Shown here in pieces: positions 6,113-37,197 of a stretch of 64,000 nt of DNA; the stretch's first letter is position 1, and each line of letters begins with the position of its first letter. Made by a program: the position numbers and the translations under genes. Source of the stretch: Escherichia coli. Lineage in GTDB: Bacteria > Pseudomonadota > Gammaproteobacteria > Enterobacterales > Enterobacteriaceae. The notes beneath the pieces are model-generated. The model saw nothing but the letters and a program-made list of their open reading frames with translations. It was not told where the DNA came from and did not search any database. The stretch is taken from assembly GCF_024502345.1 (NCBI RefSeq), contig NZ_JALDNN010000001.1. One strand, 5' to 3'.

Positions 6113-6345
6113 CGTTTCAGCCCCTTGCTGACTCCCCGATTGTTGATGAGCGCCGGACCCCGCGCAACGCTTTCCCTGAAGCAGTTTTGCCTTCCCCGAG
6201 CGGTCACGCAAAACGCTGCAACGTCCTGAGCATTTGCACCTTTTAGCGGAACGCAGATATAAAAAATCCCCGGCTTTTTGGGCCAGGGATATGTGTTAAT
6301 GAAACCTTCTTGACGCTGATTTTTTTTCAACCTAAAGTAAAGGAA

Positions 6346-6488
6346 CAAGGGTAAGGGAGGATTTCTCCCCCCTCTGATTGGCTGTTAATAAGCTGCGAAA
6401 CTTACGAGTAACAACACAATCAGTATGATGACGAGCTTCATCATAACCCTTTCCTTATACAAGGCCCCTTCTTCGGGAGGGGCTTTCC
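6346..6488 (+). ncRNA. sibE: Sib-family antisense sRNA antitoxin (SibD/E-like), copy 2; ends approximate
   Basis: Promoter TTGACG-17bp-TAAAGT at 6310-6338; overlaps second ibs ORF; same 3' hairpin as copy 1. Confidence 0.6.
6385..6444 (-). CDS. ibsE: Ibs-family type I toxin, 19-aa peptide MMKLVIILIVLLLVSFAAY
   Basis: 60-nt minus-strand ORF in second repeat unit; differs from copy 1 at 4 residues. Confidence 0.65.
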   Translation of the reverse strand: MMKLVIILIVLLLVSFAAY

Positions 6489-6633
6489 CGTTTCAGCCCC
6501 TTGCTGACTCCCCGATTGTTGATGAGCGCCGGACCCCGCGCAACGCTTTCCCTGAGGTAGTTTTGCCTTCCCCGAGCGGTCACGCAAAATGCTGCAACAG
6601 CCCGATCATTTGCACTTTTTATCGGAACGCAGA

Positions 6634-6666
6634 TATAAAAAATCCCCGGCTTTTTGGGCCAGGGAT
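6634..6666 (-). terminator. Rho-independent terminator downstream of yqiK (minus strand); a homologous copy lies at 6258-6290
   Basis: Minus-strand RNA AUCCCUGGC-CCAAAAA-GCCGGGGAU followed by UUUUUUAU; 9-bp stem with one G-U pair. Confidence 0.6.
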
Positions 6667-6682
6667 GTTCATAGCTGAAAAT

Positions 6683-8344
6683 TTATTCTACGTTTTCGGC
6701 GACGGGAGTTGTTGAGGTTAAGGGTGAAGTCAATGCAGCCAGTGAGCCGCCTGAAACGCCAATTTCATTGAGCAAGGAGTCAATCAGTGGTGCCTGTGTG
6801 CGGTAAGAGAGTGCGGCTGATAATGCTTGTTCCGCCAGGTTTCCGCCCCCCACATTACCCGTGTTTGCATCCCCCGCAGTACCACCACGATTCAGACCAT
6901 CGACCTGAATAATCTTGATACCGTCAATGGACTTCATTGGTTCCACGGATTTCTCTATTACCGCAGGTAGCGCCTGCAACAAGGCCAGTTTGAATTTAAG
7001 GCTGGTTTGTTCGTCAGAAAGTACGTTGATAGCATCGTTCAGCGCACGTTGTGCTTCTGCTTCCGCCAGGCCTTTTTTACGCGTAGCTTCGGCTAACTCA
7101 ACGATCGCCGCCGCCTGCATCTCTGCGGCTTCTTTTTCCGCTTTCGCCCGCACGGTCAGTTCAACCGCTTTGGTTTCTGCATCCTGTGCTGCGGCAATCA
7201 GCGCCACCTGCTTGGCACGATCGGCTTCGGCTGTCTGGCGAGTGGTTTCTACGTTTTGTTGGGCGCTTACTGCTTCTGCGAGTGCAAGGTTAGCACGCGC
7301 TTCTGCCTGGGACTGTTGTTCCGATTTGGCGGCAATAGCGATCGATTTCGTCTGGTTAGCGATTTCGGTGACCTGCTGCTGTTCGATCTCTTTAATGCGA
7401 ACTTCACGTTCAGCTTCAACTTTTCTTGAGCGGACGGCCTGTTCGCGGTCGATTTCTGTTTCCTGAATCTGTCGTTCAGCCAGAATTCGCGTCTGCTCTG
7501 CTTCACGACGACGTTCAGCTTCAAAAGCAGCAATTTTCGCATTTTGTTCAGCGGTACGGGTTTTAACTTGCTGCTCCTGCTCAAGCGTCATAAACGCTTC
7601 TTGTTGTTCAATCTCCAACTTGCGCGAAAGTGCATCACGGTTTTTCTCACGCACCGCAACTTCTACATCCTGTTCAACTTCGTTACGCTCGCGGCGACGG
7701 CGCTCCGTCTCCTGAGTCAGTTTGGTTAAACCTTCGGCGTCAAAGGCATTGTTCGGATTGAAATGTTCTTTCGAGGTCTGGTTAAAGTTGGTAAGTGAAA
7801 CGCTTTCCAGTTCCAGGCCGTTTTTCGACAGATCTTCAGCTACGGTATTTTGTACTCCCTGCACGAAGTTCTCGCGGGTATCCTGTAACTCATGCATGGT
7901 CATTTGCGCAGCTGTTGCACGGAGGGCATCGACAAATTTATCTTCAACCAACATACGTAAGTCTTCAGGCGACAGGGTGCGTTGCCCCAGCGTCTGGGCA
8001 GCGGTGGCAATCCCTTCTACTGAAGGTTTTACCCGCACAAAGAAAGCGACTACTACATCGACGCGCATACGATCTTTCGTAATCAGGCTATCAATGGTTG
8101 AGCGGCTGACTTCCAGCTTCAGAGTATTCATATTGATGGGGATTATTTCATGAAAGATCGGCATCACGATTGCGCCACCGCTCATTACCACTTTTTGCCC
8201 CCCTAAGCCGGTACGGACAAATGCTTGCTCTGCCGAAGCTCGACGATAGAGCCTGGCGAAAATAATTCCAATAATAAACAGAATGCATACGGCAATAATC
8301 GCGGTAAACATCCAGGAGGGCACAGAATTAACAATATCATCCAT
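6683..8344 (-). CDS. yqiK: Band-7 / flotillin-like (SPFH domain) inner membrane protein, 553 aa
   Basis: 553-aa ORF with N-terminal TM segment and long Ala/Glu/Gln-rich coiled-coil region; conserved position. Confidence 0.88.
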   Translation of the reverse strand: MDDIVNSVPSWMFTAIIAVCILFIIGIIFARLYRRASAEQAFVRTGLGGQKVVMSGGAIVMPIFHEIIPINMNTLKLEVSRSTIDSLITKDRMRVDVVVAFFVRVKPSVEGIATAAQTLGQRTLSPEDLRMLVEDKFVDALRATAAQMTMHELQDTRENFVQGVQNTVAEDLSKNGLELESVSLTNFNQTSKEHFNPNNAFDAEGLTKLTQETERRRRERNEVEQDVEVAVREKNRDALSRKLEIEQQEAFMTLEQEQQVKTRTAEQNAKIAAFEAERRREAEQTRILAERQIQETEIDREQAVRSRKVEAEREVRIKEIEQQQVTEIANQTKSIAIAAKSEQQSQAEARANLALAEAVSAQQNVETTRQTAEADRAKQVALIAAAQDAETKAVELTVRAKAEKEAAEMQAAAIVELAEATRKKGLAEAEAQRALNDAINVLSDEQTSLKFKLALLQALPAVIEKSVEPMKSIDGIKIIQVDGLNRGGTAGDANTGNVGGGNLAEQALSAALSYRTQAPLIDSLLNEIGVSGGSLAALTSPLTSTTPVAENVE

Positions 8345-8370
8345 TATTAAATTTCCTTTTGATTAATAAA

Positions 8371-9000
8371 TTACAATATTTGGGGCCAGGGATTGTTTTC
8401 CGCCAAATATCGCGTTGCAGAAAGTCGGCAAATAATTAACACTTTGTCTCCTTTAGTGAAAATTTTTCCTTCTTCAGGCTCCAGTAGTAAATAATGTATT
8501 TGGCCAAATTGATCGGTGAGTTTTCCTTCGCAGGGATTACCTGAAGTGGCTTGATGACCGGTAATTAATGCCATGCTACCAATATATTCTTCTTCTGTAA
8601 TAGCTGAACTATGGTCGCGTGGAATCCAGGGCGCAACTATTTTACCGGTATAATGCACCGCAATAATCGTAAACAGTAAACTGACAGGAACCACGAACAG
8701 GTTCGACAGTGGTGATTGCCAGACCATGATGCAGGCATGCTGCAACAGGATGCCAATAAGACCAAAAAAACCAGCCAGCAAGCAGAGAACGACGAGAGCT
8801 GGCAATCTTCCGATATTGAGATAATGAAGTGCCTGGCTAATATGACCTGTGGTTATGGAATCATAATGGTCAAGATGTGCATCAAGAGCACCGGAGAGCA
8901 TGTGACCGCAGATAAGCGCAAAAATTTCTAAAAGGCCGATCAACAGTACAAAGGAAATAGCGAAAAGATAAGGGGTATTATAGTCGGCGAATAAAATCAT
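8371..9000 (-). CDS. yqiJ: Inner membrane protein (NfeD-like partner of YqiK), 209 aa
   Basis: 209-aa ORF directly upstream of yqiK in an operon arrangement; hydrophobic N-terminal half. Confidence 0.85.
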
Positions 9001-9268
9001 ATGTCACTCCAATGTCCATTTAGTGACGCAATATTCACTTTGGGATAGTTTCCTTGCTTACATTTATCTTTGTTAATAATAACACACGTTAGAGAAGTTC
9101 TGGAAGAGAAAGTCTTTTAATATGGTTTTTTATTTTTCACTAAAAAGTGTGATCGGGGACAATATATTTACGCACGTTATGTTTAAAGGCACTACACTGA
9201 TTGGGGAATACTGAAATCAGAAAAAGCATATGGCCTTAAAAGGTATGCGATAACCGGAGGATGTGCTT

Positions 9269-9469
9269 ATGGATCATAGTCTTAATTCTTTAAATAATTT
9301 CGATTTCCTGGCGCGTAGTTTTGCCAGAATGCACGCAGAAGGTCGCCCGGTCGATATTCTGGCCGTTACTGGTAACATGGATGAAGAACATAGAACCTGG
9401 TTTTGCGCACGTTATGCCTGGTATTGCCAACAGATGATGCAAACCAGAGAACTTGAATTAGAACACTGA
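9269..9469 (+). CDS. glgS: Surface composition regulator GlgS, 66 aa
   Basis: Recognised sequence [28 protein letters not shown]...; track ORF starts 2 codons earlier (9263). Confidence 0.88.
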
Positions 9470-9474
9470 TATTA

Positions 9475-9497
9475 CGGGCCGTCTGGCCCGTTTTTGT
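9475..9497 (+). terminator. Terminator hairpin between convergent glgS and yqiC
   Basis: CGGGCC-GTCT-GGCCCG followed by TTTTTGTGTT on + strand. Confidence 0.6.
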
Positions 9498-9503
9498 GTT
9501 GCT

Positions 9504-9803
9504 TTATTCTGCTTTATCAATAGGCGGGATAGCCGGAGGAGATTGAAGATCTGCTACCGAATTATTGCGCGCCTCCAGTTCACTGATGCGCTGCTCCAGT
9601 AACGCCAGTTTTTCACGAGTCCGTAACAGGACTTGCGTCTGTACGTCGAATTCTTCGCGGCTCACCAGATCGAGACGCGTCAGCTGCGCTTGTAGGGTTT
9701 GGCGGATTTTTTTCTCCACATCTTCCCCGAACTCCCTGATTCCTTTAGGCATTGATTCGTGAACCTGGCGAGCGATTTGCTCAATTTTTTTCGGGTCAAT
9801 CAT
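9504..9803 (-). CDS. ubiK: Ubiquinone biosynthesis accessory factor UbiK (YqiC), ~99 aa
   Basis: Track ORF 9504..9863 trimmed to [16 protein letters not shown]... start; coiled-coil BMFP-type protein. Confidence 0.8.
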
Positions 9804-9925
9804 TGTAGTTTCCCTGTACTGATAGGTGTTGAGTGCCATTGTAGTGCGATAAGGGTAAGTCATAAACCAGAATTATGTGAAGCTATGCGTTGCTGCCGCT
9901 AATCATTAGCGTTATAGTGAATCCG

Positions 9926-10176
9926 CTTATTCTCAGGGCGGGGCGAAATTCCCCACCGGCGGTAAATCAACTCAGTTGAAAGCCCGCGAGCGCTTTGGGT
10001 GCGAACTCAAAGGACAGCAGATCCGGTGTAATTCCGGGGCCGACGGTTAGAGTCCGGATGGGAGAGAGTAACGATTCTGTCGGGCATGGACCCGCTCACG
10101 TTATTTTGGCTATATGCCGCCACTCCTAAGACTGCCCTGATTCTGGTAACCATAATTTTAGTGAGGTTTTTTTACC
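9926..10176 (+). promoter_or_regulatory. FMN riboswitch (RFN element) in the ribB 5' leader
   Basis: Conserved RFN core CAGGGCGGGGCGAAAUUCCCCACCGGCGGUAAA ... AUCCGGUGUAAUUCCGGGGCCGACGGUUAGAGUCCGGAUGGGAGAGAGUAACG; putative -10 TATAGT at 9913-9918. Confidence 0.88.
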
Positions 10177-10830
10177 ATGAATCAGACGCTACTTTCCTCT
10201 TTTGGTACGCCTTTCGAACGTGTTGAAAATGCACTGGCTGCGCTGCGTGAAGGACGCGGTGTAATGGTGCTTGATGATGAAGACCGTGAAAACGAAGGTG
10301 ATATGATCTTCCCGGCAGAAACCATGACCGTTGAGCAGATGGCGCTGACCATTCGCCACGGTAGCGGTATTGTTTGCCTGTGCATTACTGAAGATCGCCG
10401 TAAACAACTCGATCTGCCAATGATGGTAGAAAATAACACCAGCGCCTATGGCACCGGTTTTACCGTGACCATTGAAGCGGCTGAAGGTGTGACTACCGGT
10501 GTTTCTGCCGCTGACCGTATTACGACCGTTCGCGCAGCGATTGCCGATGGCGCAAAACCTTCTGATCTGAATCGCCCGGGCCACGTTTTCCCACTCCGCG
10601 CTCAGGCTGGTGGTGTACTGACGCGTGGCGGTCATACTGAAGCAACTATTGATCTAATGACGCTGGCAGGCTTTAAACCGGCTGGTGTGCTGTGTGAGCT
10701 GACTAATGACGATGGCACGATGGCGCGTGCACCAGAGTGCATTGAGTTTGCCAATAAACACAATATGGCACTCGTGACTATTGAAGACCTGGTGGCATAC
10801 CGTCAGGCACATGAGCGTAAAGCCAGCTGA
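10177..10830 (+). CDS. ribB: 3,4-dihydroxy-2-butanone 4-phosphate synthase, 217 aa
   Basis: 217-aa ORF; recognised sequence; follows FMN riboswitch. Confidence 0.93.
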
Positions 10831-10862
10831 AAACCGCTGCTTAATTTACTGCCTTAATCAAG

Positions 10863-10897
10863 AAACCGAAGTTGTAGCAGGCTTCGGTTTTTATTTT
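10863..10897 (+). terminator. ribB rho-independent terminator
   Basis: AACCGAAG...CTTCGGTT hairpin followed by TTTATTTTT. Confidence 0.6.
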
Positions 10898-11091
10898 TCC
10901 CTGCTATGCAAGATGTTAATTCCGCTTCTCTTTCTATGAGAAAATTTCATTAATATCAGGCATTCTTTTTCATTATGATCAAAATCATATAATTGTTCCG
11001 TTATTATGCGACCATATGAATATATCCGAAAAAGGATATGTGAAATTTATGCGCTAAATGTTTAGTATTGTTAAATATTAAGGGTAAAAGG

Positions 11092-11262
11092 ATGTTTATC
11101 GCCTGGTACTGGATTGTATTGATTGCTCTTGTTGTGGTGGGTTATTTCCTGCATTTGAAACGTTATTGTCGGGCGTTTCGCCAGGACAGAGACGCACTGC
11201 TTGAAGCGCGGAACAAATACTTAAACAGTACGAGAGAAGAGACAGCCGAAAAGGTAGAATAA
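11092..11262 (+). CDS. Small single-pass membrane protein, 56 aa (MFIAWYWIVLIALVVVGYFL...)
   Basis: Track ORF starts at TTG 11068; internal ATG 11092 has a better SD (AAGGGTAAAAGG); hydrophobic helix then basic/charged tail; strong terminator immediately downstream. Confidence 0.5.
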   Translation: MFIAWYWIVLIALVVVGYFLHLKRYCRAFRQDRDALLEARNKYLNSTREETAEKVE

Positions 11263-11282
11263 GGCTTTAGTGAAGCTAGCAG

Positions 11283-11313
11283 AAGTTGTCCATGCGCTGG
11301 ACAACTTCTGATG
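11283..11313. terminator. Bidirectional terminator between small ORF and zupT
   Basis: Perfect hairpin CAGAAGTTGTCCA-TGCGC-TGGACAACTTCTG. Confidence 0.6.
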
Positions 11314-11319
11314 TTGCTT

Positions 11320-12093
11320 TTAACCAATTCCCGCCGTTTGTAGCAGCACTAAACTGAATCCCATCACTGACATTCCACATAGTACGCCATAGCTGGGGTT
11401 ATTATTAGGGTCAATCTCTTTGGCGAGCGGCATTAATTCATCAACCGAGAGCGCCACCATAATTCCTGCAACCGCCGCCATGATTGCCGCCATGACCACC
11501 GGGGAAATCATGCTACCGAGGATTAACCACGCCAGCACACCACCAAGAATTTCTGCCAATCCAGAAATCCCCGCCCACAGAATTGCCGTGCGTTTAGAAC
11601 CCGTTGCTGCATAAACCGGGCCTGCAACCGCCAGACCTTCAGGAATATTGTGCAACGCGACGGCCAGTGCGATGCCAAATCCCAGCTCCAGGTTGCTGCT
11701 CGCCGTGACAAAGGTGGCAATCCCTTCCGGGAAGTTATGCAGACTGATGCCGAGAGTGAGCAGAATGGCTGTGCGCTTGATCGATTTTGGCAACGGCTGC
11801 ACCGATTTTTGCATTAAATCCTGCGGATGCGCATGTGGCAACATGCGGTCCAGGCCAAAATAGCCAAGCAGACCGAAGATAAACATTCCATAACCCAACA
11901 CAGGCGACATTCCTTCAGCTGCTAGTGCGGCAGGAAGCATTTCCATTAATGAGATGAGCAACATGATCCCCGCCGCAAATCCTAGCGAAAACGCCAGTAA
12001 GCGGTTCGAGGGTTTTTGCCCGAGAACGCCGAGAAACGCGCCAATAAACGTGGCTGCCCCCGCCAGTATGGTCAGAATGAGAGGTACTGACAT
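11320..12093 (-). CDS. zupT: Zinc transporter ZupT (ZIP family), 257 aa
   Basis: Track ORF 271 aa trimmed to [19 protein letters not shown]...; multi-TM ZIP protein. Confidence 0.9.
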
Positions 12094-25411: not shown

Positions 25412-25894
25412 ATGACAAACCTGACACTGGATGTAAACATTATCGATTTCCCATCAATCCCTGTGGCGATGTTGCCGCACCGCTGTAGCCCTGAGTTGCT
25501 CAACTACAGTGTGGCGAAATTTATCATGTGGCGTAAAGAGACGGGGCTTTCTCCTGTTAACCAAAGCCAGACTTTTGGCGTCGCCTGGGACGACCCTGCC
25601 ACCACCGCACCGGAAGCGTTTCGCTTTGATATCTGCGGCAGCGTTAGCGAACCGATTCCCGATAATCGTTATGGTGTGAGCAATGGTGAACTTACCGGTG
25701 GACGTTATGCCGTGGCCCGCCACGTTGGCGAGCTGGACGATATTTCACACACGATATGGGGCATTATTCGCCACTGGCTGCCTGCAAGCGGCGAGAAAAT
25801 GCGTAAAGCACCGATTCTGTTTCACTACACCAATCTTGCCGAAGGGGTGACAGAGCAGCGACTGGAAACGGATGTTTATGTGCCGTTGGCGTGA
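25412..25894 (+). CDS. ygiV: GyrI-like/AraC-effector-domain transcriptional regulator, 160 aa
   Basis: 160-aa ORF; recognised. Confidence 0.88.
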   Translation: MTNLTLDVNIIDFPSIPVAMLPHRCSPELLNYSVAKFIMWRKETGLSPVNQSQTFGVAWDDPATTAPEAFRFDICGSVSEPIPDNRYGVSNGELTGGRYAVARHVGELDDISHTIWGIIRHWLPASGEKMRKAPILFHYTNLAEGVTEQRLETDVYVPLA

Positions 25895-26439
25895 TGGGGA
25901 ATCTTTACCGGAGTGTGAGCCAAATCACTCGCGATAAGTTTGAGCGAACAATGCCACAGGCGTATTGTTGTTGGGCTTATAATTTCTCCGGTAAGGAATA
26001 CCATGTATACGCGAAATTTATTATCCGGTGCGCCGTAAGCCGTCTCGGGGGTATCCATGAGCAAGCCGCACTTATGGCAGGAGGCGCGGGGCACTGGTGG
26101 AGACACAGCTAAACTGGGCTGAACCGTATACTTACAGTCGACTACTTTGATGCTTTAGGCTTCCCTGGACTCGCATAACCTCAACTTCTCGAATCGCCCG
26201 GAGCGGACCCCCATGCCGAGTGGTGTGGCATGGGCGCAACCTTGTGCTGCCCTCTATGCCGATCAAGTCTACAGCAAAGAGTTGTATATCAAGGCACATT
26301 GATGCCTTTATCGCCGTCGGAGCACGTCCGGCGGCGCTATTCACGCTGATCTCCTGTGACTCGACGCGGCAGATAATGTAGTATCTCCGGCAATATTGCC
26401 CCTTTGAAGGCTGGCGAATAAGTTGAGGAATCAGAATTA

Positions 26440-28698
26440 ATGAGCGATATGGCAGAGCGCCTTGCGCTACATGAATTTACGGAAAACGCCTACTTAAACT
26501 ACTCCATGTACGTGATCATGGACCGTGCGTTGCCGTTTATTGGCGATGGTCTTAAACCTGTTCAGCGCCGCATTGTGTATGCGATGTCTGAACTGGGCCT
26601 GAATGCCAGCGCCAAATTTAAAAAATCGGCCCGTACCGTCGGTGACGTACTGGGTAAATACCATCCGCACGGCGATAGCGCCTGTTATGAAGCGATGGTC
26701 CTGATGGCGCAGCCGTTCTCTTACCGTTATCCGCTGGTTGATGGTCAGGGGAACTGGGGCGCGCCGGACGATCCGAAATCGTTCGCGGCAATGCGTTACA
26801 CCGAATCCCGGTTGTCGAAATATTCCGAGCTGCTATTGAGCGAGCTGGGGCAGGGGACGGCTGACTGGGTGCCAAACTTCGACGGCACTTTGCAGGAGCC
26901 GAAAATGCTACCCGCCCGTCTGCCAAACATTTTGCTTAACGGCACCACCGGTATTGCCGTCGGCATGGCGACCGATATTCCACCGCATAACCTGCGTGAA
27001 GTGGCTCAGGCGGCAATCGCATTAATCGACCAGCCGAAAACCACGCTCGATCAGCTGCTGGATATCGTGCAGGGGCCGGATTATCCGACTGAAGCGGAAA
27101 TTATCACTTCGCGCGCCGAGATCCGTAAAATCTACGAGAACGGACGTGGTTCAGTGCGTATGCGCGCGGTGTGGAAGAAAGAAGATGGCGCGGTGGTTAT
27201 CAGCGCATTGCCGCATCAGGTTTCAGGTGCGCGCGTACTGGAGCAAATTGCTGCGCAAATGCGCAACAAAAAGCTGCCGATGGTTGACGATCTGCGCGAT
27301 GAATCTGACCACGAGAACCCGACCCGTCTGGTGATTGTGCCGCGTTCCAACCGCGTGGATATGGATCAGGTGATGAACCACCTCTTCGCTACCACCGATC
27401 TGGAAAAGAGCTATCGCATTAACCTCAATATGATCGGTCTGGATGGTCGTCCGGCGGTGAAAAACCTGCTGGAAATCCTCTCCGAATGGCTGGTGTTCCG
27501 TCGCGATACCGTGCGCCGCCGACTGAACTATCGTCTGGAGAAAGTCCTCAAGCGCCTGCATATCCTGGAAGGTTTGCTGGTGGCGTTTCTCAACATCGAC
27601 GAAGTGATTGAGATCATTCGTAACGAAGATGAACCGAAACCGGCGCTGATGTCGCGGTTTGGCCTTACGGAAACCCAGGCGGAAGCGATCCTCGAACTGA
27701 AACTGCGTCATCTTGCCAAACTGGAAGATATGAAGATTCGCGGTGAGCAGAGTGAGCTGGAAAAAGAGCGCGACCAGTTGCAGGGCATTTTGGCTTCCGA
27801 GCGTAAAATGAATAACCTGCTGAAGAAAGAACTGCAGGCAGACGCGCAAGCCTACGGTGACGATCGTCGTTCGCCGTTGCAGGAACGCGAAGAAGCGAAA
27901 GCGATGAGCGAGCACGACATGCTGCCGTCTGAACCTGTCACCATTGTGCTGTCGCAGATGGGCTGGGTACGCAGCGCTAAAGGCCATGATATCGACGCGC
28001 CGGGCCTGAATTATAAAGCGGGTGATAGCTTCAAAGCGGCGGTGAAAGGTAAGAGCAACCAACCGGTAGTGTTTGTTGATTCCACCGGTCGTAGCTATGC
28101 CATCGACCCGATTACGCTGCCGTCGGCGCGTGGTCAGGGCGAACCACTCACCGGCAAATTAACGTTGCCGCCTGGGGCGACCGTTGACCATATGCTGATG
28201 GAAAGCGACGATCAGAAACTGCTGATGGCTTCCGATGCGGGTTACGGTTTCGTCTGCACCTTTAACGATCTGGTGGCGCGTAACCGTGCAGGTAAGGCTT
28301 TGATCACCTTACCGGAAAATGCCCATGTTATGCCGCCGGTGGTGATTGAAGATGCTTCCGATATGCTGCTGGCAATCACTCAGGCAGGCCGTATGTTGAT
28401 GTTCCCGGTAAGTGATCTGCCGCAGCTGTCGAAGGGCAAAGGCAACAAGATTATCAACATTCCATCGGCAGAAGCCGCGCGTGGAGAAGATGGTCTGGCG
28501 CAATTGTACGTTCTGCCGCCGCAAAGCACGCTGACCATTCATGTTGGGAAACGCAAAATTAAACTGCGCCCGGAAGAGTTACAGAAAGTCACTGGCGAAC
28601 GTGGACGCCGCGGTACGTTGATGCGCGGTTTGCAGCGTATCGATCGTGTTGAGATCGACTCTCCTCGCCGTGCCAGCAGCGGTGATAGCGAAGAGTAA
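26440..28698 (+). CDS. parC: DNA topoisomerase IV subunit A, 752 aa
   Basis: 752-aa ORF; catalytic-Tyr region and GyrA-like sequence; recognised. Confidence 0.95.
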
Positions 28699-29742: not shown

Positions 29743-31155
29743 ATGTCACTCAGTCGGCGTCAGTTCATTCAGGCATCGGGGATTGCACTTTGTGCAGGCG
29801 CTGTTCCCCTGAAGGCCAGCGCAGCCGGGCAACAGCAACCGCTACCCGTTCCGCCGCTACTTGAATCTCGCCGTGGGCAACCGCTGTTTATGACTGTACA
29901 ACGTGCGCACTGGTCATTTACGCCAGGGACACGCGCGTCGGTCTGGGGAATCAATGGTCGTTACCTGGGGCCGACTATCCGCGTCTGGAAGGGCGACGAT
30001 GTTAAGCTTATTTACAGCAACCGCCTGACAGAAAATGTCTCAATGACGGTGGCCGGGCTACAGGTACCAGGCCCGCTGATGGGCGGTCCGGCACGGATGA
30101 TGTCGCCAAACGCTGACTGGGCACCCGTACTGCCTATTCGCCAGAACGCAGCTACTCTGTGGTATCACGCCAATACTCCCAACCGCACGGCTCAGCAGGT
30201 CTATAACGGCCTTGCCGGAATGTGGCTGGTGGAAGATGAAGTCAGCAAGTCGCTGCCTATCCCCAACCATTATGGTGTGGATGATTTTCCGGTCATTATC
30301 CAGGATAAACGGCTGGATAACTTTGGTACGCCAGAATACAACGAACCGGGAAGCGGCGGCTTTGTTGGTGATACGCTGCTGGTTAACGGTGTACAAAGCC
30401 CGTACGTTGAAGTCTCGCGTGGCTGGGTGCGCTTGCGACTGCTGAACGCGTCGAACTCTCGTCGCTATCAACTACAGATGAGCGATGGTCGCCCGTTACA
30501 TGTGATTTCTGGCGATCAGGGATTCCTGCCTGCTCCTGTATCGGTGAAGCAACTTTCGCTGGCACCGGGCGAGCGCCGCGAGATTCTGGTGGATATGAGC
30601 AACGGCGATGAAGTGTCGATCACCTGTGGCGAAGCGGCGAGCATTGTTGATCGTATTCGCGGCTTCTTTGAGCCATCCAGTATTCTGGTTTCTACCCTGG
30701 TGCTAACGCTGCGCCCAACCGGCCTTCTGCCGCTGGTCACAGACAGTCTTCCGATGCGCTTGCTGCCAACTGAAATCATGGCTGGTTCGCCAATTCGCAG
30801 TCGCGATATCAGTCTGGGTGATGACCCGGGTATTAATGGACAGCTGTGGGACGTCAACCGTATTGATGTCACCGCTCAGCAAGGAACGTGGGAACGCTGG
30901 ACGGTACGCGCGGACGAGCCGCAAGCGTTCCATATTGAAGGCGTAATGTTCCAGATCCGTAACGTGAATGGCGCGATGCCGTTCCCGGAAGACAGAGGCT
31001 GGAAAGATACCGTTTGGGTTGACGGACAAGTGGAGCTGCTTGTTTATTTCGGTCAGCCTTCCTGGGCGCACTTCCCGTTCTACTTCAACAGTCAGACGCT
31101 GGAAATGGCGGACCGTGGCTCGATTGGGCAACTGTTGGTCAATCCGGTACCGTAA
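29743..31155 (+). CDS. ftsP: Cell division protein FtsP (SufI), multicopper-oxidase fold, 470 aa
   Basis: Tat signal (SRRQFIQASG); recognised. Confidence 0.93.
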   Translation: MSLSRRQFIQASGIALCAGAVPLKASAAGQQQPLPVPPLLESRRGQPLFMTVQRAHWSFTPGTRASVWGINGRYLGPTIRVWKGDDVKLIYSNRLTENVSMTVAGLQVPGPLMGGPARMMSPNADWAPVLPIRQNAATLWYHANTPNRTAQQVYNGLAGMWLVEDEVSKSLPIPNHYGVDDFPVIIQDKRLDNFGTPEYNEPGSGGFVGDTLLVNGVQSPYVEVSRGWVRLRLLNASNSRRYQLQMSDGRPLHVISGDQGFLPAPVSVKQLSLAPGERREILVDMSNGDEVSITCGEAASIVDRIRGFFEPSSILVSTLVLTLRPTGLLPLVTDSLPMRLLPTEIMAGSPIRSRDISLGDDPGINGQLWDVNRIDVTAQQGTWERWTVRADEPQAFHIEGVMFQIRNVNGAMPFPEDRGWKDTVWVDGQVELLVYFGQPSWAHFPFYFNSQTLEMADRGSIGQLLVNPVP

Positions 31156-31205
31156 TGGACCAATTCATCGCCCCACAAAGTGGTGGGGCGATACAAGGAT
31201 GAATC

Positions 31206-32642
31206 ATGGATGGCATGGGATGGATGATTATTTTGGTACTTCCCTTTCTTTGGATGGGGTATGGACTGGCGTTGTTAATCATAATGGGGTGCGCTTTTGA
31301 ATCTAAGGGGATTCGTCGCGTTCTGCTATGGGGTGTTGCACCCCAGTTTATTATTCTTTGTATTACGACCTTATTGCTTTACTGGATTAACTCTCGGTTA
31401 ATTTATGTTTTTGTCTTTTTTCAGCCAGTTTTATGCATCACCACGGCAATTTTTTTGTTTGCTGGTAAAAAAACACAATATTCCAGATTGCTGTTTACTC
31501 TGTCTCATGTGATTTTTCTCGCTGGAGTTTTATATCAGGGGTATAGGGAAAATCTGCAATACATAATTAATAATGACTGGAAGGAATATAAAATAACGCG
31601 TTTATTTGAGCAAGTGCAGGACAATGGGGCGCATGCGCTGAAAAACGATGTAACTTGTTCAGAATTAATGCAACTACTTACACTGGCAGCGGAACGTGAT
31701 GACGTCAAAGAAGAGACGTTACGTACTCTTATTGCAAAGAGAGTATCGCCATTTCTGACAATGTCAGATAATTGTACGGGTGAGAATTCAGTAGAGATTT
31801 ATTCTGTATATACTACGCCTTTTATGGCGGCTATTCAAAATCATAATATACATTCTGTCCGTTTTTTTAGTCAATTGCTTATGGGAAACTCACCAAAAGC
31901 AAAAAATAATCGTGACATTGTGCGCCGGGCAAACCCTTTGATCGAAGTGTATAAATATAGTCATGGTTCAAAAAAACAACGTAAATCAGGGTTAGAAATA
32001 AGTAAGCAATTTATGGCTATTATGCCAGAACTATTAACAGATGCCGTCTGGCGTGCCGTGCTCAATGTATATGATGCCGATGCAGCACGATGGTTCTGGC
32101 GTAAGCAACCACCAGAAAATCGGTTGTATCGCTTAAAGGCTATGGCATTAATACCACAAACGGATGCGCTGTTGGCGGATATTCGACAAACTCCAGAGGT
32201 ACTGAATATCTCGTCTGAGAGTGATCCGAATGAAGAGGAGTTTCTCCATTTCTTAATTAATGGGGGCGATATCACTGTAATACATGCACTGGTTGAAAAA
32301 GGAATAGTTAACTGGCAGCACCTTATGAACATTGAGGGGTTTGATAAGGACCCCCTAATTTGGGCTATTTCAAAGCTGGGAGAAACTGACAATGACCGGG
32401 AGGTTTTGGCATTAATTATTCATGATATTAATGCGCAAAACGCACTGCCGGAGGATCGCATTGCCAAATATTTAACGCGGACGGGATCAATGGGCGATAT
32501 TTTTTTAAAAGCGGGCTTACATTGTGATAAGTTATATTCGGCAATTGAGTCCGACAAAAAGCGAAATAATGGTATGTATAGTCAAAACGCCAGGGAAGAA
32601 GTGGATCGCGTATGTACTCCGGTGATGCTGCCAACTTACTGA
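31206..32642 (+). CDS. Hypothetical membrane-anchored protein, paralog A (~474 aa natively): 4 predicted N-terminal TM helices + C-terminal domain with ankyrin-like repeat motifs; last codons supplied by IS1
   Basis: ATG with SD AAGGA 6 nt upstream; AT-rich; hydrophobic segments at ~5-29, 39-60, 65-87, 94-111; motifs such as TTPFMAAIQNHNIHSVRFFSQLL resemble ankyrin consensus; not recognised as any K-12 gene. Confidence 0.7.
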   Translation: MDGMGWMIILVLPFLWMGYGLALLIIMGCAFESKGIRRVLLWGVAPQFIILCITTLLLYWINSRLIYVFVFFQPVLCITTAIFLFAGKKTQYSRLLFTLSHVIFLAGVLYQGYRENLQYIINNDWKEYKITRLFEQVQDNGAHALKNDVTCSELMQLLTLAAERDDVKEETLRTLIAKRVSPFLTMSDNCTGENSVEIYSVYTTPFMAAIQNHNIHSVRFFSQLLMGNSPKAKNNRDIVRRANPLIEVYKYSHGSKKQRKSGLEISKQFMAIMPELLTDAVWRAVLNVYDADAARWFWRKQPPENRLYRLKAMALIPQTDALLADIRQTPEVLNISSESDPNEEEFLHFLINGGDITVIHALVEKGIVNWQHLMNIEGFDKDPLIWAISKLGETDNDREVLALIIHDINAQNALPEDRIAKYLTRTGSMGDIFLKAGLHCDKLYSAIESDKKRNNGMYSQNAREEVDRVCTPVMLPTY

Positions 32643-32675
32643 TTTAGTGTATGATGGTGTTTTTGAGGTGCTCCA

Positions 32676-32951
32676 GTGGCTTCTGTTTCTATCAGCTGTC
32701 CCTCCTGTTCAGCTACTGACGGGGTGGTGCGTAACGGCAAAAGCACCGCCGGACATCAGCGCTATCTCTGCTCTCACTGCCGTAAAACATGGCAACTGCA
32801 GTTCACTTACACCGCTTCTCAACCCGGTACGCACCAGAAAATCATTGATATGGCCATGAATGGCGTTGGATGCCGGGCAACCGCCCGCATTATGGGCGTT
32901 GGCCTCAACACGATTTTCCGCCATTTAAAAAACTCAGGCCGCAGTCGGTAA
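32676..32951 (+). CDS. insA: IS1 InsA, 91 aa
   Basis: Recognised sequence [43 protein letters not shown]... Confidence 0.95.
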
Positions 32952-33373
32952 CCTCGCGCATACAGCCGGGCAGTGACGTCATCGTCTGCGCGGAAATGGA
33001 CGAACAGTGGGGATACGTCGGGGCTAAATCGCGCCAGCGCTGGCTGTTTTACGCGTATGACAGGCTCCGGAAGACGGTTGTTGCGCACGTATTCGGTGAA
33101 CGCACTATGGCGACGCTGGGGCGTCTTATGAGCCTGCTGTCACCCTTTGACGTGGTGATATGGATGACGGATGGCTGGCCGCTGTATGAATCCCGCCTGA
33201 AGGGAAAGCTGCACGTAATCAGCAAGCGATATACGCAGCGAATTGAGCGGCATAACCTGAATCTGAGGCAGCACCTGGCACGGCTGGGACGGAAGTCGCT
33301 GTCGTTCTCAAAATCGGTGGAGCTGCATGACAAAGTCATCGGGCATTATCTGAACATAAAACACTATCAATAA
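32870..33373 (+). CDS. insB: IS1 InsB' frame (InsAB' transposase made by -1 frameshift from insA)
   Basis: Overlapping -1 frame ORF inside IS1; recognised. Confidence 0.9.
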
Positions 33374-33451
33374 GTTGGAGTCATTACCTGTACTCCCGCA
33401 AAATAGGTGCAGTTTGGCGCGGTTAAGGAATAAAAAATAAAGGACTAAGCC

Positions 33452-34862
33452 ATGCGTAACGATGAACTTCTTCACCATTTTACTTTTACATTGCTTATGT
33501 TGGGTGGCTATCTACTGACTCTGTTCATCGTTATCGTCCTTTCCTTTTTTCGCCCACTATGCCGAAAAATGGTCTTCCATGGCATATTGCCACAATTGAT
33601 GATGTCGCTAATGGTGTCGCTCGGTTTATATTATCTGGAACGATACTCTATTGCGGTATGGGCCTTACTGGATTCTGTTTGGATATTATTCCCTTGCCTG
33701 TTATTGATCATAGTGATAAATAAATGGTCAAAACGTTCCCTTGTATGGATGAGTGCTTGTCATATTATGTGCTTGCTGTTGTTACTCTGGCAGGTGCAGC
33801 CCACGTTATTTAAAATCAGCTTTTATCACCAACAATTAAGTCACCTGGCTCAGGCAGAACAGGAAAATTTCCGCACACTGGATGCGATTCACGATACGCA
33901 ACGTCTGGAAGAGATGTTGCTGGTAGCGTTGAAATCCCCGGAAAATAAAACCTCTGAAAATGCCTTTCGCTATCTGTCAGGGCGAATCTCACCATTTGCT
34001 ATACCTTCCATTGGCGATCAAAAGTATTCTACCCGCACTTTTTTTACGATTGCGTTGGAACATTACAACGCCCGCGCCATCCGCGCGTTTAGCCGCTTTC
34101 TGCAAGGAAATTCCTCAAAAGCGCAGGAATATCGCGCGATTGTTCATCAAAACAATCCACTGCAGCAGATGTACCGGGGAATAAGTTTGCCAATTCGTTT
34201 TAGTGAAGAAGAGATCGCCCGCCACATTGTTGCCGCTCGCGAGATAAGCCTCACCTTACTGCCCCTGATGCCAGAATTATTAAGCGAAGAGGCGTATGCA
34301 AATGTCATTGATGCTTATGACAGCGCAACGCTGAAGGCTTTTTGGCAGATCCAGCTGCCCGCCCACGCCGGTTTTACGCCTGGAAGCGATGTCGGTAATT
34401 CCTATGACAGCGGCACTCGTTCAACAGGTGAGGGAGTCACCAAAGCGGCTTGAACTGAAAGATAAAAGTGGCAGGACAGTACTAACTTACATCGTGCGCT
34501 TTGGAAATATTGCCGCAGTACAGGCACTGATTGACGCTAATCTGATCGACTGGCAACGGCTTCGCCAATCGACAGAAAGGTCAACACCATTATTACTGGC
34601 CACCTGGCGACAAAAATACGACGATGATCATGTAATCTTCCCATTGATTTTAAAGGACATTCTGGCAAAAAATACACCACCGTCGGCAGAGGAAATAATG
34701 AACTGCATCAAGGATGGTATGACCGCAGATGATTTTTTATCTGCCGGAATGAGCAACACGCAATTCTGTTCTGCGATTGAACAAAGCCTCCAGGCGAAAA
34801 CGTCAGTATTACCGGCGAATCGATTACGCCATCTGCAATCCTCGCTGTGTGCAAAGCTGTAA
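33452..34862 (+). pseudogene. Paralog B of the membrane-anchored ankyrin-like protein, split by a frameshift near 34350-34370 into ORFs 33452..34453 and 34389..34862
   Basis: Good RBS (AAGGA-7nt-ATG); N-terminal TM helices; aligns with paralog A across the frame switch (A: FWRKQPPENRLYRLKAMALIP; B frame1 FWQIQLP, frame2 PPTPVLRLEAMSVIP). Confidence 0.6.
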
Positions 34863-34977
34863 CCAACCGGGAGTTAAGTCATCCGCTGAAAACATCGCAT
34901 TAACTTTTCGATTTCTCTTTCGTTCCGGCTTATAATCCCCGGCCTTTGATTATTTTTTTATCATTTCTGGAAGCAAA

Positions 34978-37197
34978 ATGAGCTCTATCTCCCTGATCCA
35001 ACCGGATCGCGACCTGTTCTCCTGGCCGCAGTACTGGGCCGCCTGTTTTGGACCGGCACCGTTTTTGCCGATGTCTCGTGAAGAGATGGATCAACTTGGC
35101 TGGGATAGCTGCGACATCATTTTGGTTACTGGCGACGCGTATGTCGATCACCCAAGCTTCGGGATGGCGATTTGCGGTCGTATGCTGGAAGCGCAGGGCT
35201 TTCGCGTCGGGATCATCGCCCAGCCGGACTGGAGCAGCAAAGACGACTTTATGCGTCTGGGTAAACCGAATCTGTTTTTCGGTGTTACTGCTGGCAACAT
35301 GGATTCGATGATCAACCGTTATACCGCCGATCGCCGTTTACGTCATGACGATGCCTACACGCCGGATAACGTCGCGGGTAAGCGCCCGGATCGCGCCACA
35401 CTGGTTTATACCCAGCGTTGTAAAGAGGCGTGGAAAGATGTACCGGTGATCCTCGGCGGTATTGAGGCTAGTCTGCGCCGTACCGCACATTATGATTACT
35501 GGTCCGATACCGTGCGCCGTTCCGTGCTGGTGGATTCGAAAGCCGACATGCTGATGTTTGGTAACGGTGAGCGTCCGCTGGTGGAGGTGGCGCACCGTCT
35601 GGCGATGGGCGAGCCGATTAGTGAAATCCGCGATGTGCGTAATACCGCGATTATCGTGAAAGAGGCGCTGCCTGGCTGGAGCGGCGTGGATTCCACCCGT
35701 CTTGATACCCCTGGAAAAATCGACCCAATCCCGCATCCGTATGGTGAAGATTTGCCGTGCGCGGATAACAAACCGGTGGCACCGAAAAAGCAGGAAGCCA
35801 AAGCCGTAACCGTGCAGCCACCGCGCCCGAAACCGTGGGAAAAAACCTACGTGTTGCTGCCTTCTTTCGAGAAAGTGAAGGGCGATAAAGTGCTGTACGC
35901 CCATGCTTCGCGTATTCTGCACCACGAAACCAACCCAGGCTGTGCCCGCGCATTGATGCAAAAACACGGCGACCGCTATGTGTGGATCAACCCGCCTGCT
36001 ATTCCGCTTTCTACCGAAGAGATGGACAGCGTTTTTGCGCTGCCATACAAGCGCGTGCCACATCCGGCCTATGGCAATGCCCGTATTCCGGCTTACGAAA
36101 TGATCCGTTTTTCGGTCAACATTATGCGTGGCTGCTTTGGCGGCTGCTCTTTCTGTTCTATCACCGAGCACGAAGGGCGCATTATTCAGAGCCGTTCCGA
36201 AGATTCGATCATTAATGAGATCGAAGCGATCCGCGACACCGTTCCAGGTTTTACGGGCGTAATTTCCGATCTCGGTGGGCCAACTGCCAACATGTATATG
36301 TTGCGCTGCAAATCGCCACGCGCTGAACAAACTTGTCGCCGTTTGTCGTGCGTTTATCCGGATATTTGTCCGCACATGGACACTAACCACGAACCGACGA
36401 TCAACCTCTATCGCCGTGCGCGTGATCTGAAAGGCATTAAAAAAATCCTCATCGCCTCAGGCGTACGTTATGACATCGCCGTGGAAGATCCGCGCTATAT
36501 CAAAGAGTTGGCGACCCATCACGTCGGCGGTTATCTGAAGATTGCTCCGGAACATACCGAAGAAGGGCCGTTGTCGAAGATGATGAAGCCGGGCATGGGC
36601 AGCTATGACCGCTTTAAAGAGCTATTCGATACCTACTCGAAACAGGCAGGTAAAGAGCAGTATCTGATCCCGTATTTCATCTCTGCGCACCCCGGTACGC
36701 GTGATGAAGATATGGTGAATTTGGCGCTGTGGCTGAAAAAGCATCGTTTCCGTCTCGACCAGGTACAGAACTTCTACCCATCGCCGCTGGCGAACTCAAC
36801 CACCATGTATTACACCGGGAAAAACCCGCTGGCGAAGATTGGTTATAAGAGCGAAGACGTCTTCGTACCGAAGGGCGACAAGCAGCGTCGTTTGCATAAA
36901 GCGTTGTTGCGTTACCACGATCCGGCAAACTGGCCGTTAATCCGCCAGGCGCTGGAAGCGATGGGTAAAAAGCATCTGATTGGTAGCCGTCGCGATTGCT
37001 TAGTGCCTGCGCCAACCATTGAAGAGATGCGTGAAGCTCGTCGCCAGAACCGCAATACCCGTCCGGCGTTGACGAAACATACGCCGATGGCGACCCAGCG
37101 TCAGACGCCTGCTACGGCAAAAAAAGCGTCGTCTACGCAATCTCGTCCGGTGAATGCTGGTGCGAAGAAACGCCCTAAAGCGGCGGTTGGACGTTAA
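34978..37197 (+). CDS. ygiQ: Radical SAM protein YgiQ (UPF0313), 739 aa
   Basis: CxxxCxxC motif (CFGGCSFC); basic low-complexity C-terminal tail; recognised. Confidence 0.9.

Follow-up and report, generated by a model that had tools for sequence, protein, structure and literature searches.

What are the two genes that part ftsP from ygiQ in a small fraction of Escherichia coli chromosomes, and what might their products do? The DNA in question belongs to a stretch of 64,000 nucleotides of contig NZ_JALDNN010000001.1 (RefSeq assembly GCF_024502345.1), here called the window, to whose numbering positions refer unless another locus is named. The gap between ftsP and ygiQ holds gene A (31206–32642), encoding a protein with four transmembrane (TM) helices and an ankyrin-like domain, a copy of the insertion sequence IS1, and gene B (33452–34862), a pseudogene and paralog of A, all on the + strand. 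We find that the pair consists of old, partly broken and decaying copies of a fast-evolving family. The family is uncharacterised, and the hypervariable way in which it fills one conserved slot across genera is noteworthy. As to function, each protein may be a stand-alone, orphan periplasmic binder of the immunity type, directed against antibacterial effectors that target the envelope, a reading that we hold tentatively, at a probability of about 0.35.

Architecture and predicted topology

With their lesions repaired in silico as described below, A and B are 27% identical over about 456 aa, that is over their whole length (BLASTP, E 1e-46), as expected from a preliminary description of this DNA in which they appeared as tandem same-strand paralogs. 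That description had also assigned to each protein four TM helices at the N-terminus and a soluble domain with ankyrin-like motifs, and the predictions agree on the helices and on a helical soluble part. Hydropathy and AlphaFold2 both place TM helices at residues ~3–30, 36–60, 66–85 and 91–114; the N-terminus is thus a four-helix bundle, with no lipobox signal peptide, and the remainder of the ~470-aa protein is predicted to form an all-helical, ankyrin-like soluble domain of ~360 aa. This domain is predicted to fold as a solenoid of stacked helix-turn-helix repeats, and the ankyrin call made at the outset is essentially right because its two motifs lie in ankyrin-like helices. Pfam Ank_2 matches stay below threshold, at independent E-values of 0.0011 (B) and 0.097 (A); no domain reaches E ≤ 0.001, and a search of PDB sequences returned weak matches to KANK ankyrin proteins alone (E 0.002–0.5). 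The family profile matches long and giant ankyrin proteins in 7–30 stretches each, with E down to 1.7e-23, and these matches to multi-repeat proteins all run through profile positions ~320–374, the region that holds a canonical repeat of ~33 aa. The soluble domain can be described as an ankyrin-like solenoid of divergent sequence in which one repeat is canonical.

The distribution of charged residues suggests on which side of the membrane this solenoid lies. In a set of 21 members of the family, about 2.5 Lys/Arg fall in each of loops 1 and 3, where acidic residues are nearly absent, and the N-terminal tail and loop 2 carry <1 Lys/Arg. Under the positive-inside rule this pattern predicts an N-out/C-out protein with loops 1 and 3 in the cytoplasm, and the ankyrin-like solenoid is therefore probably periplasmic. 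A near-invariant Cys (C470) stands four residues from the native C-terminus, and a partner Cys ~21–27 residues upstream is also conserved; the two probably form a periplasmic disulfide. Polar residues are also conserved within the membrane: TM2 has a near-invariant Pro-Gln, and a His is frequent in TM4.

Bacterial ankyrin repeats often target hosts, and one could imagine A and B as secreted or injected effectors against eukaryotic hosts, like the Ank proteins of Legionella and Coxiella. The four TM helices and the predicted periplasmic orientation speak against such a role, as does the lack of secretion-system genes beside the Enterobacterales copies. The matches to AnkX reflect generic repeat similarity, reaching 10.6 bits against a curated cut-off of 1400. 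We regard this alternative as exceedingly unlikely.

The copies in the window are degraded

The IS1 element (32621–33388, + strand) is 768 bp long, has terminal inverted repeats and contains insA (32676–32951) and the insB frame (32870–33373). It is flanked by an 8-bp target-site duplication, TGTACTCC, whose left (32613–32620) and right (33389–33396) copies were confirmed by a check of the sequence. It is 99–100% identical to elements annotated 'IS1-like element IS1B family transposase' and is the single IS1 copy within the window. IS1 had been placed in the spacer between the two genes; it in fact interrupts gene A within its final codons, and A is native up to 32620 and takes its last six codons and stop from the element. 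The resulting open reading frame (ORF) specifies 478 aa, of which residues 473–478 are IS1-encoded, and excising IS1 together with one copy of the repeat in silico yields a native protein of 474 aa ending in DRVCTPAK. The estimate that the genes had stood ~45 bp apart before the insertion was correct, as their spacing in the IS-free strain LD91-1 is 45 bp.

Gene B had been taken for an intact gene of ~475 aa. Compared with the intact LD91-1 allele, it carries an extra C at 34358 that shifts the frame and splits it into ORFs at 33452–34453 (333 aa) and 34389–34862 (157 aa); removing this C in silico gives an ORF of 469 aa. The A–IS1 fusion of 478 aa is present on 7 public contigs and the 333-aa fragment of B on 101, and since both lesions recur in public assemblies they are real and not errors of this one. 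The frameshift in B is probably older than the IS1 insertion in A. Further truncated forms of 268, 230, 224, 177 and 152 aa have been deposited. The window thus holds a degraded example, with B dead, A tail-swapped and the two genes parted by IS1, and the preliminary description, although it reported a real observation, overstated it as an intact 'system'.

Such decay raises the possibility that these genes are functionless remnants drifting to loss, the conservation of the family being historical. For B in the window, functionless status is likely. The frameshift in B, the IS1 strike on A, the deposited truncations, 5' deletions of B in four genomes and broken copies in other genera could all be read in this way for the family as a whole. 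Set against them are intact ORFs in Escherichia, Salmonella, Pseudocitrobacter, Atlantibacter, Erwinia and Serratia, ratios of nonsynonymous to synonymous substitution rates (dN/dS) of 0.17–0.35 at synonymous divergences (dS) of up to 0.9, and motifs and a Cys pair that are kept at 15–30% identity. Together these indicate purifying selection on the intact alleles, and a family of remnants is decidedly unlikely.

A long-standing polymorphic slot between ftsP and ygiQ

The slot is bounded on the left by ftsP (29743–31155, + strand; a 470-aa ORF whose product is called FtsP in the RefSeq annotation of LD91-1) and on the right by ygiQ (34978–37197, + strand; a 739-aa ORF annotated there as a YgiQ family radical SAM protein). 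The claim that an insert splits the two genes holds: the gap in the window is about 3.8 kb, and ftsP and ygiQ are adjacent in 4,199 of 5,426 complete E. coli genomes (77%); A and B are absent from a K-12-type junction. Base-by-base comparison with an empty-site strain (L008, junction at 1758–1794) defines a variable segment at 31157–34905 that substitutes for 38 bp of the empty junction; identity stops at the ftsP stop codon and restarts at 34906, 72 bp before the ygiQ ATG. Gene A occurs in 13 of the complete genomes (0.24%), and B is present in these carriers as full-length DNA in nine and as a 5'-deleted form in four. About 1,200 complete genomes have no contiguous empty junction. One further state is known from B2/extraintestinal pathogenic E. 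coli (ExPEC), where a 7.8-kb sugar-acid/TRAP-transporter region named 'GR 21 ygiQ..ftsP' occupies the site (PMC12928451). The junction therefore exists in E. coli in at least three states, namely empty, with the sugar-acid/TRAP region, or with the ankyrin-like pair.

The same slot is used in other Enterobacteriaceae, among them Salmonella, Pseudocitrobacter and Superficieibacter, where it holds members 25–50% identical to A or B in genomes whose FtsP, YgiQ and PlsC are 86–95% identical to those of E. coli (FtsP 88–93%, YgiQ 93–95%). One cassette or two may occupy it, the lineages represented being deep and at least six in number, and one copy is often broken. The Superficieibacter slot contains a B-type gene and the remnant of a P0043-type copy, and that of E. 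albertii the remnant of a P0042-type copy and an intact B-type gene; single copies are found at L003, L006, L009 and L017. The most elaborate arrangement (L015, GCA_913778145.1, positions 6251–11767) begins with a divergently oriented pair of LemA and M48-peptidase genes, continues with an intact 587-aa member that has eight TM helices through duplication of the 4-TM module, and ends with a P0042-type copy broken into three ORFs; its proteins match those of Pseudocitrobacter and of Enterobacteriaceae bacterium G50. Other members of the family sit at unrelated chromosomal sites.

The cassettes evolve 10–30 times faster than their flanks. Values of dN/dS are 0.28–0.67 for A and 0.17–0.22 for B, against 0.005–0.04 for ftsP, and are alike in the TM and soluble parts. 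Comparison of the B alleles of LD91-1 (L001, 5777–7186) and Escherichia sp. MOD1-EC7003 (L017, 6959–8368) gives a dS of 0.77, against 0.18 for the adjacent ftsP, so that the histories of cassette and flank differ; this one comparison suggests that old B alleles have been exchanged by recombination (allelic replacement).

These observations bear on two claims about how the locus arose and works. The insert had been attributed to horizontal acquisition, and its DNA is indeed AT-rich (GC content 40.3% in A and 45.7% in B, against 56.4% in ftsP and 54.5% in ygiQ; that of IS1 is 53.6%). A recently acquired island was nevertheless rejected as an explanation: no direct or flanking repeats, integrase or att sites were found at the boundaries of the segment as defined against the empty-site strain, the sole mobility gene at the locus is the secondary IS1, and divergent members share the slot across Enterobacteriaceae. 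The slot is an old, long-standing polymorphic locus with frequent loss rather than a fresh island. Nor do A and B make up an effector/immunity pair, another role suggested for them, or a two-gene system in which each needs the other, as they are paralogs of the same architecture and single-copy genomes exist.

Could the genes instead encode an endogenous envelope factor, for example one that binds FtsP and serves in cell division, in the response to envelope stress or in envelope assembly? All Enterobacteriaceae loci seen have the gene 3' of ftsP and in the same orientation, mostly directly after it, with the LemA/M48 pair intervening at L015. In E. coli the spacer is short and contains, after the ftsP stop, a 10-bp perfect inverted repeat (31167–31192, + strand; ATCGCCCCAC / GTGGGGCGAT, confirmed in the sequence) with no T-run, so that ftsP transcription may read through into gene A. 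This hairpin belongs to the occupied junction and differs in sequence from the hairpin at the corresponding place of the empty one (L008, ~1765–1785). A promoter/terminator scan of 30900–35100 did not call it and found no more sites than in shuffled sequence. Periplasmic ankyrin helpers do exist, such as Pseudomonas aeruginosa AnkB, which assists the catalase KatB and, as proposed for A and B, is a periplasm-facing ankyrin protein tethered to the inner membrane; AnkB, however, is a ~180-aa protein with a single anchor, encoded in a katB-ankB operon with its endogenous partner, and is not hypervariable. An FtsP partner would fit poorly with co-evolution, because FtsP is 88–93% identical across genera while the downstream protein is 25–50% identical. 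Moreover, the gene is missing from 99.8% of the complete E. coli genomes, members occur at unrelated loci and copies are often pseudogenised. An endogenous role is, on balance, unlikely.

Distribution of the family and relation to known defence genes

Word-indexed searches of 5.8 billion proteins recovered close relatives only, and a HMMER profile search of 1.84 billion representatives recovered about 20 full-length clusters (at 50% identity). The named members belong to E. coli, E. albertii, E. whittamii, Escherichia cryptic-clade strains, Salmonella enterica and Pseudocitrobacter, and further from Atlantibacter hermannii, Superficieibacter electus, Erwinia rhapontici and Serratia proteamaculans. 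Two of the family alignments (A2 and A4) proved too diverse to be used in scanning for loci; a genome scan with a third (A1) used narrow patterns and returned three loci.

The statement that neither protein belongs to a characterised family stands, as no match above threshold was obtained in Pfam, NCBIfam, PADLOC or PHROGs. NCBIfam matches of A and B were at chance level and far under cut-off, PADLOC-DB v2 contained no family matching intact A or B at E ≤ 1, and PHROGs gave no match to either. Literature searches by accession number and keyword found no paper on these proteins. The stronger claim that they are undescribed is right in that no curated family covers them, and too strong in that RefSeq already labels them: B is 'ankyrin repeat domain-containing protein' or 'hypothetical protein', and A is 'hypothetical protein' or 'membrane protein'. 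Outside the RefSeq ankyrin labels, named members of the family are all 'hypothetical protein'.

Phage exclusion, or anti-phage defence more broadly, had been put forward for the pair and has points in its favour. The genes are AT-rich, rare, fast-evolving and accessory, they occupy a chromosomal hotspot, their products lie in the envelope, and the conserved polar TM residues hint at more than an anchor. In such a scheme the solenoid would bind a phage protein (candidates being a tail tip, tape measure or ejection protein) and would block genome entry or trigger depolarisation through the four TM helices. We found no support for it: to the missing PADLOC and PHROG matches can be added that tblastn with A detected no homolog in 50,697 phage records or among PLSDB plasmids, and that a scan of IMG/VR viral contigs detected none. 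Superinfection-exclusion genes are usually prophage-borne. No locus examined has adjacent defence genes, and the sole informative context, described below, is a type VI secretion system (T6SS) and not a phage. We consider a role against phage doubtful.

Two further members have neighbours of other kinds. A paralog in Salmonella enterica (P0051, 466 aa) occupies a different site, rich in IS elements, between genes of the PBP_like_2 and DUF4034 families (8001–9401 in L012–L014); many deposited genomes have it split into forms of 130 and 310 aa, and it is absent from the complete E. coli genomes. At L007 (8551–8847), another member, P0048, adjoins a gene of the Barstar family, whose products give immunity to RNase toxins, and two small ORFs without annotation on the opposite strand; this adjacency is a weak hint of an immunity-gene neighbourhood.

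Distant members next to T6SS lipase immunity genes

The most distant full-length member, P0088, matches the family profile with E 3e-7 over residues 8–442 and shares the architecture and the Cys pair of the other members. Its gene closes a cluster on a soil metagenome contig (Ga0066798_10004801; L022, 1–5033) that encodes, in order, the C-terminal domain of a VgrG protein (DUF2345, E 4e-42), a lipase of Tle4 type (E 6e-52 to PDB 4R1D, with LCAT and PGAP1 matches in addition), Tli4 and P0088, and so contains a full vgrG-tle4-tli4 module of a T6SS. A metagenome scan with the P0088 subfamily gained one new locus, on an independent contig (L029), where the sole relative of P0088 (P0125, 43% identical) directly follows a homolog of the Tli4 C-terminus. 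Both contigs end just after the family member. These two loci resemble the Tle4–Tli4 modules typified by P. aeruginosa PA1510/PA1509 (PDB 4R1D) in that a distant member directly follows a Tli4-type gene, one of them having a Tle4 homolog and a VgrG C-terminal domain as well; the family itself, however, has no similarity to Tli4, and no Enterobacterales copy lies beside tle4 or tli4. The gene after tli4 in strain PAO1, PA1508, was considered as a possible relative and proved to be an unrelated PAAR3 protein.

A possible role as orphan immunity-type binders

Several features, when combined, favour an immunity-type binder over the other readings: a non-enzymatic, protein-binding solenoid that is predicted to be periplasmic, the existence of deep allelic lineages at one fixed locus and of divergent copies in tandem, fast protein evolution with some purifying selection remaining, frequent loss, and, for the distant branch, a T6SS effector–immunity context. 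In such a mechanism each protein would act alone. Its periplasmic solenoid would capture a foreign protein arriving at the envelope, most probably an antibacterial effector, for example a T6SS phospholipase or another membrane-targeting toxin, and the 4-TM domain would keep the binder at the surface of the inner membrane, the site of action of such toxins. Toxin recognition would differ from lineage to lineage, and a cassette would be lost or would decay once its cognate attacker was no longer met.

Known systems offer partial precedents. Tle lipases act in the periplasm. Pore-forming colicins are countered by polytopic inner-membrane immunity proteins (Cai/Cbi type) with 3–4 TM helices and ~110–180 aa, plasmid-borne and encoded beside the colicin gene, but these toxin neutralisers have no large periplasmic domain such as that of A and B, and a Pfam scan of A and B found no colicin-immunity domain. 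Polymorphic toxin systems include arrays of orphan immunity genes, reportedly described by Zhang et al. (2012), and A and B resemble such arrays in being stand-alone genes with tandem divergent paralogs, rapid turnover and presence or absence at a fixed site. The products of known orphan immunity genes are usually small and soluble and have homologs in a characterised family of cognate immunity proteins, whereas A and B are large polytopic membrane proteins for which no cognate toxin was recognised. Enterobacter cloacae Tli (ECL_01554) is a periplasmic lipoprotein with six ankyrin repeats that provides immunity to a T6SS lipase of a related Tle class and protects only from within the periplasm (PMC11470151; bioRxiv 10.1101/2023.03.28.534661). 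As is predicted for A and B, this Tle6 immunity protein (PDB 9CYS, 7UBZ) is an all-helical ankyrin-type solenoid at the membrane with no enzymatic domain, and all three come from Enterobacteriaceae. Tli, however, is a lipoprotein with six canonical repeats that is always encoded beside its lipase gene, whereas A and B have a four-TM anchor and one sequence-canonical repeat, lack a toxin gene beside them and show no detectable resemblance to Tli in sequence.

A number of results weigh against an immunity function. No toxin gene adjoins the Enterobacterales copies in the loci examined, and no lipase gene was found there either, the ftsP–ygiQ interval of the window holding A, IS1 and B only. The T6SS linkage consists of two related soil-metagenome loci whose members are ~15% identical to A, and the cognate immunity protein, Tli4, is already present at both. 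Searching the full set of PDB sequences with the family profile, at cut-offs of E ≤ 1 and E ≤ 10, gave no match to Tli (9CYS/7UBZ), and a Foldseek search of the soluble domain against the PDB gave nothing significant, which marks the domain as a divergent solenoid and not a typical ankyrin fold. The periplasmic topology and the disulfide are both predictions. Four TM helices with conserved polar residues exceed what an anchor needs. Finally, dN/dS is below 1, and the faster rates could reflect relaxed constraint and not an arms race. It is the lack of a linked toxin, the presence of Tli4 beside the distant T6SS subfamily, the absence of similarity to Tli and the polar TM residues that keep our confidence low.

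A related proposal would make more of the membrane domain. Each protein could be a single-protein envelope defence module in which the solenoid senses a toxin or phage component and the 4-TM bundle responds by opening, closing or signalling across the inner membrane; Enterobacteriaceae would in that case have in common, at the ftsP–ygiQ slot, a hypervariable locus of 'receptor cassettes'. We think this very unlikely.

Gene order around the slot

The ORFs of this part of the window follow one another in the order parC, plsC, ftsP, the 478-aa ORF, insA/insB of IS1, the 333-aa and 157-aa ORFs, and ygiQ. Further upstream, the interval between ygiW and parC (25412–26440) contains just ygiV and a ~545-bp spacer. 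On the K-12 map, mqsR-mqsA and ygiS lie between ygiW and parC, and this toxin–antitoxin segment appears to be missing from the strain of the window.

Biological significance

The practical value of the finding is modest, as just 0.24% of complete E. coli genomes carry the genes and the example in the window is degraded. If the proposed immunity function is correct, it would apply to an uncurated family of about 20 clusters spread over Escherichia, Salmonella, Pseudocitrobacter, Atlantibacter, Superficieibacter, Erwinia and Serratia. The idea of ankyrin-based immunity, known from Tli and Tle6, would then reach polytopic membrane proteins, and enteric bacteria would keep a dedicated hypervariable chromosomal slot against envelope toxins that needs no toxin gene of its own.

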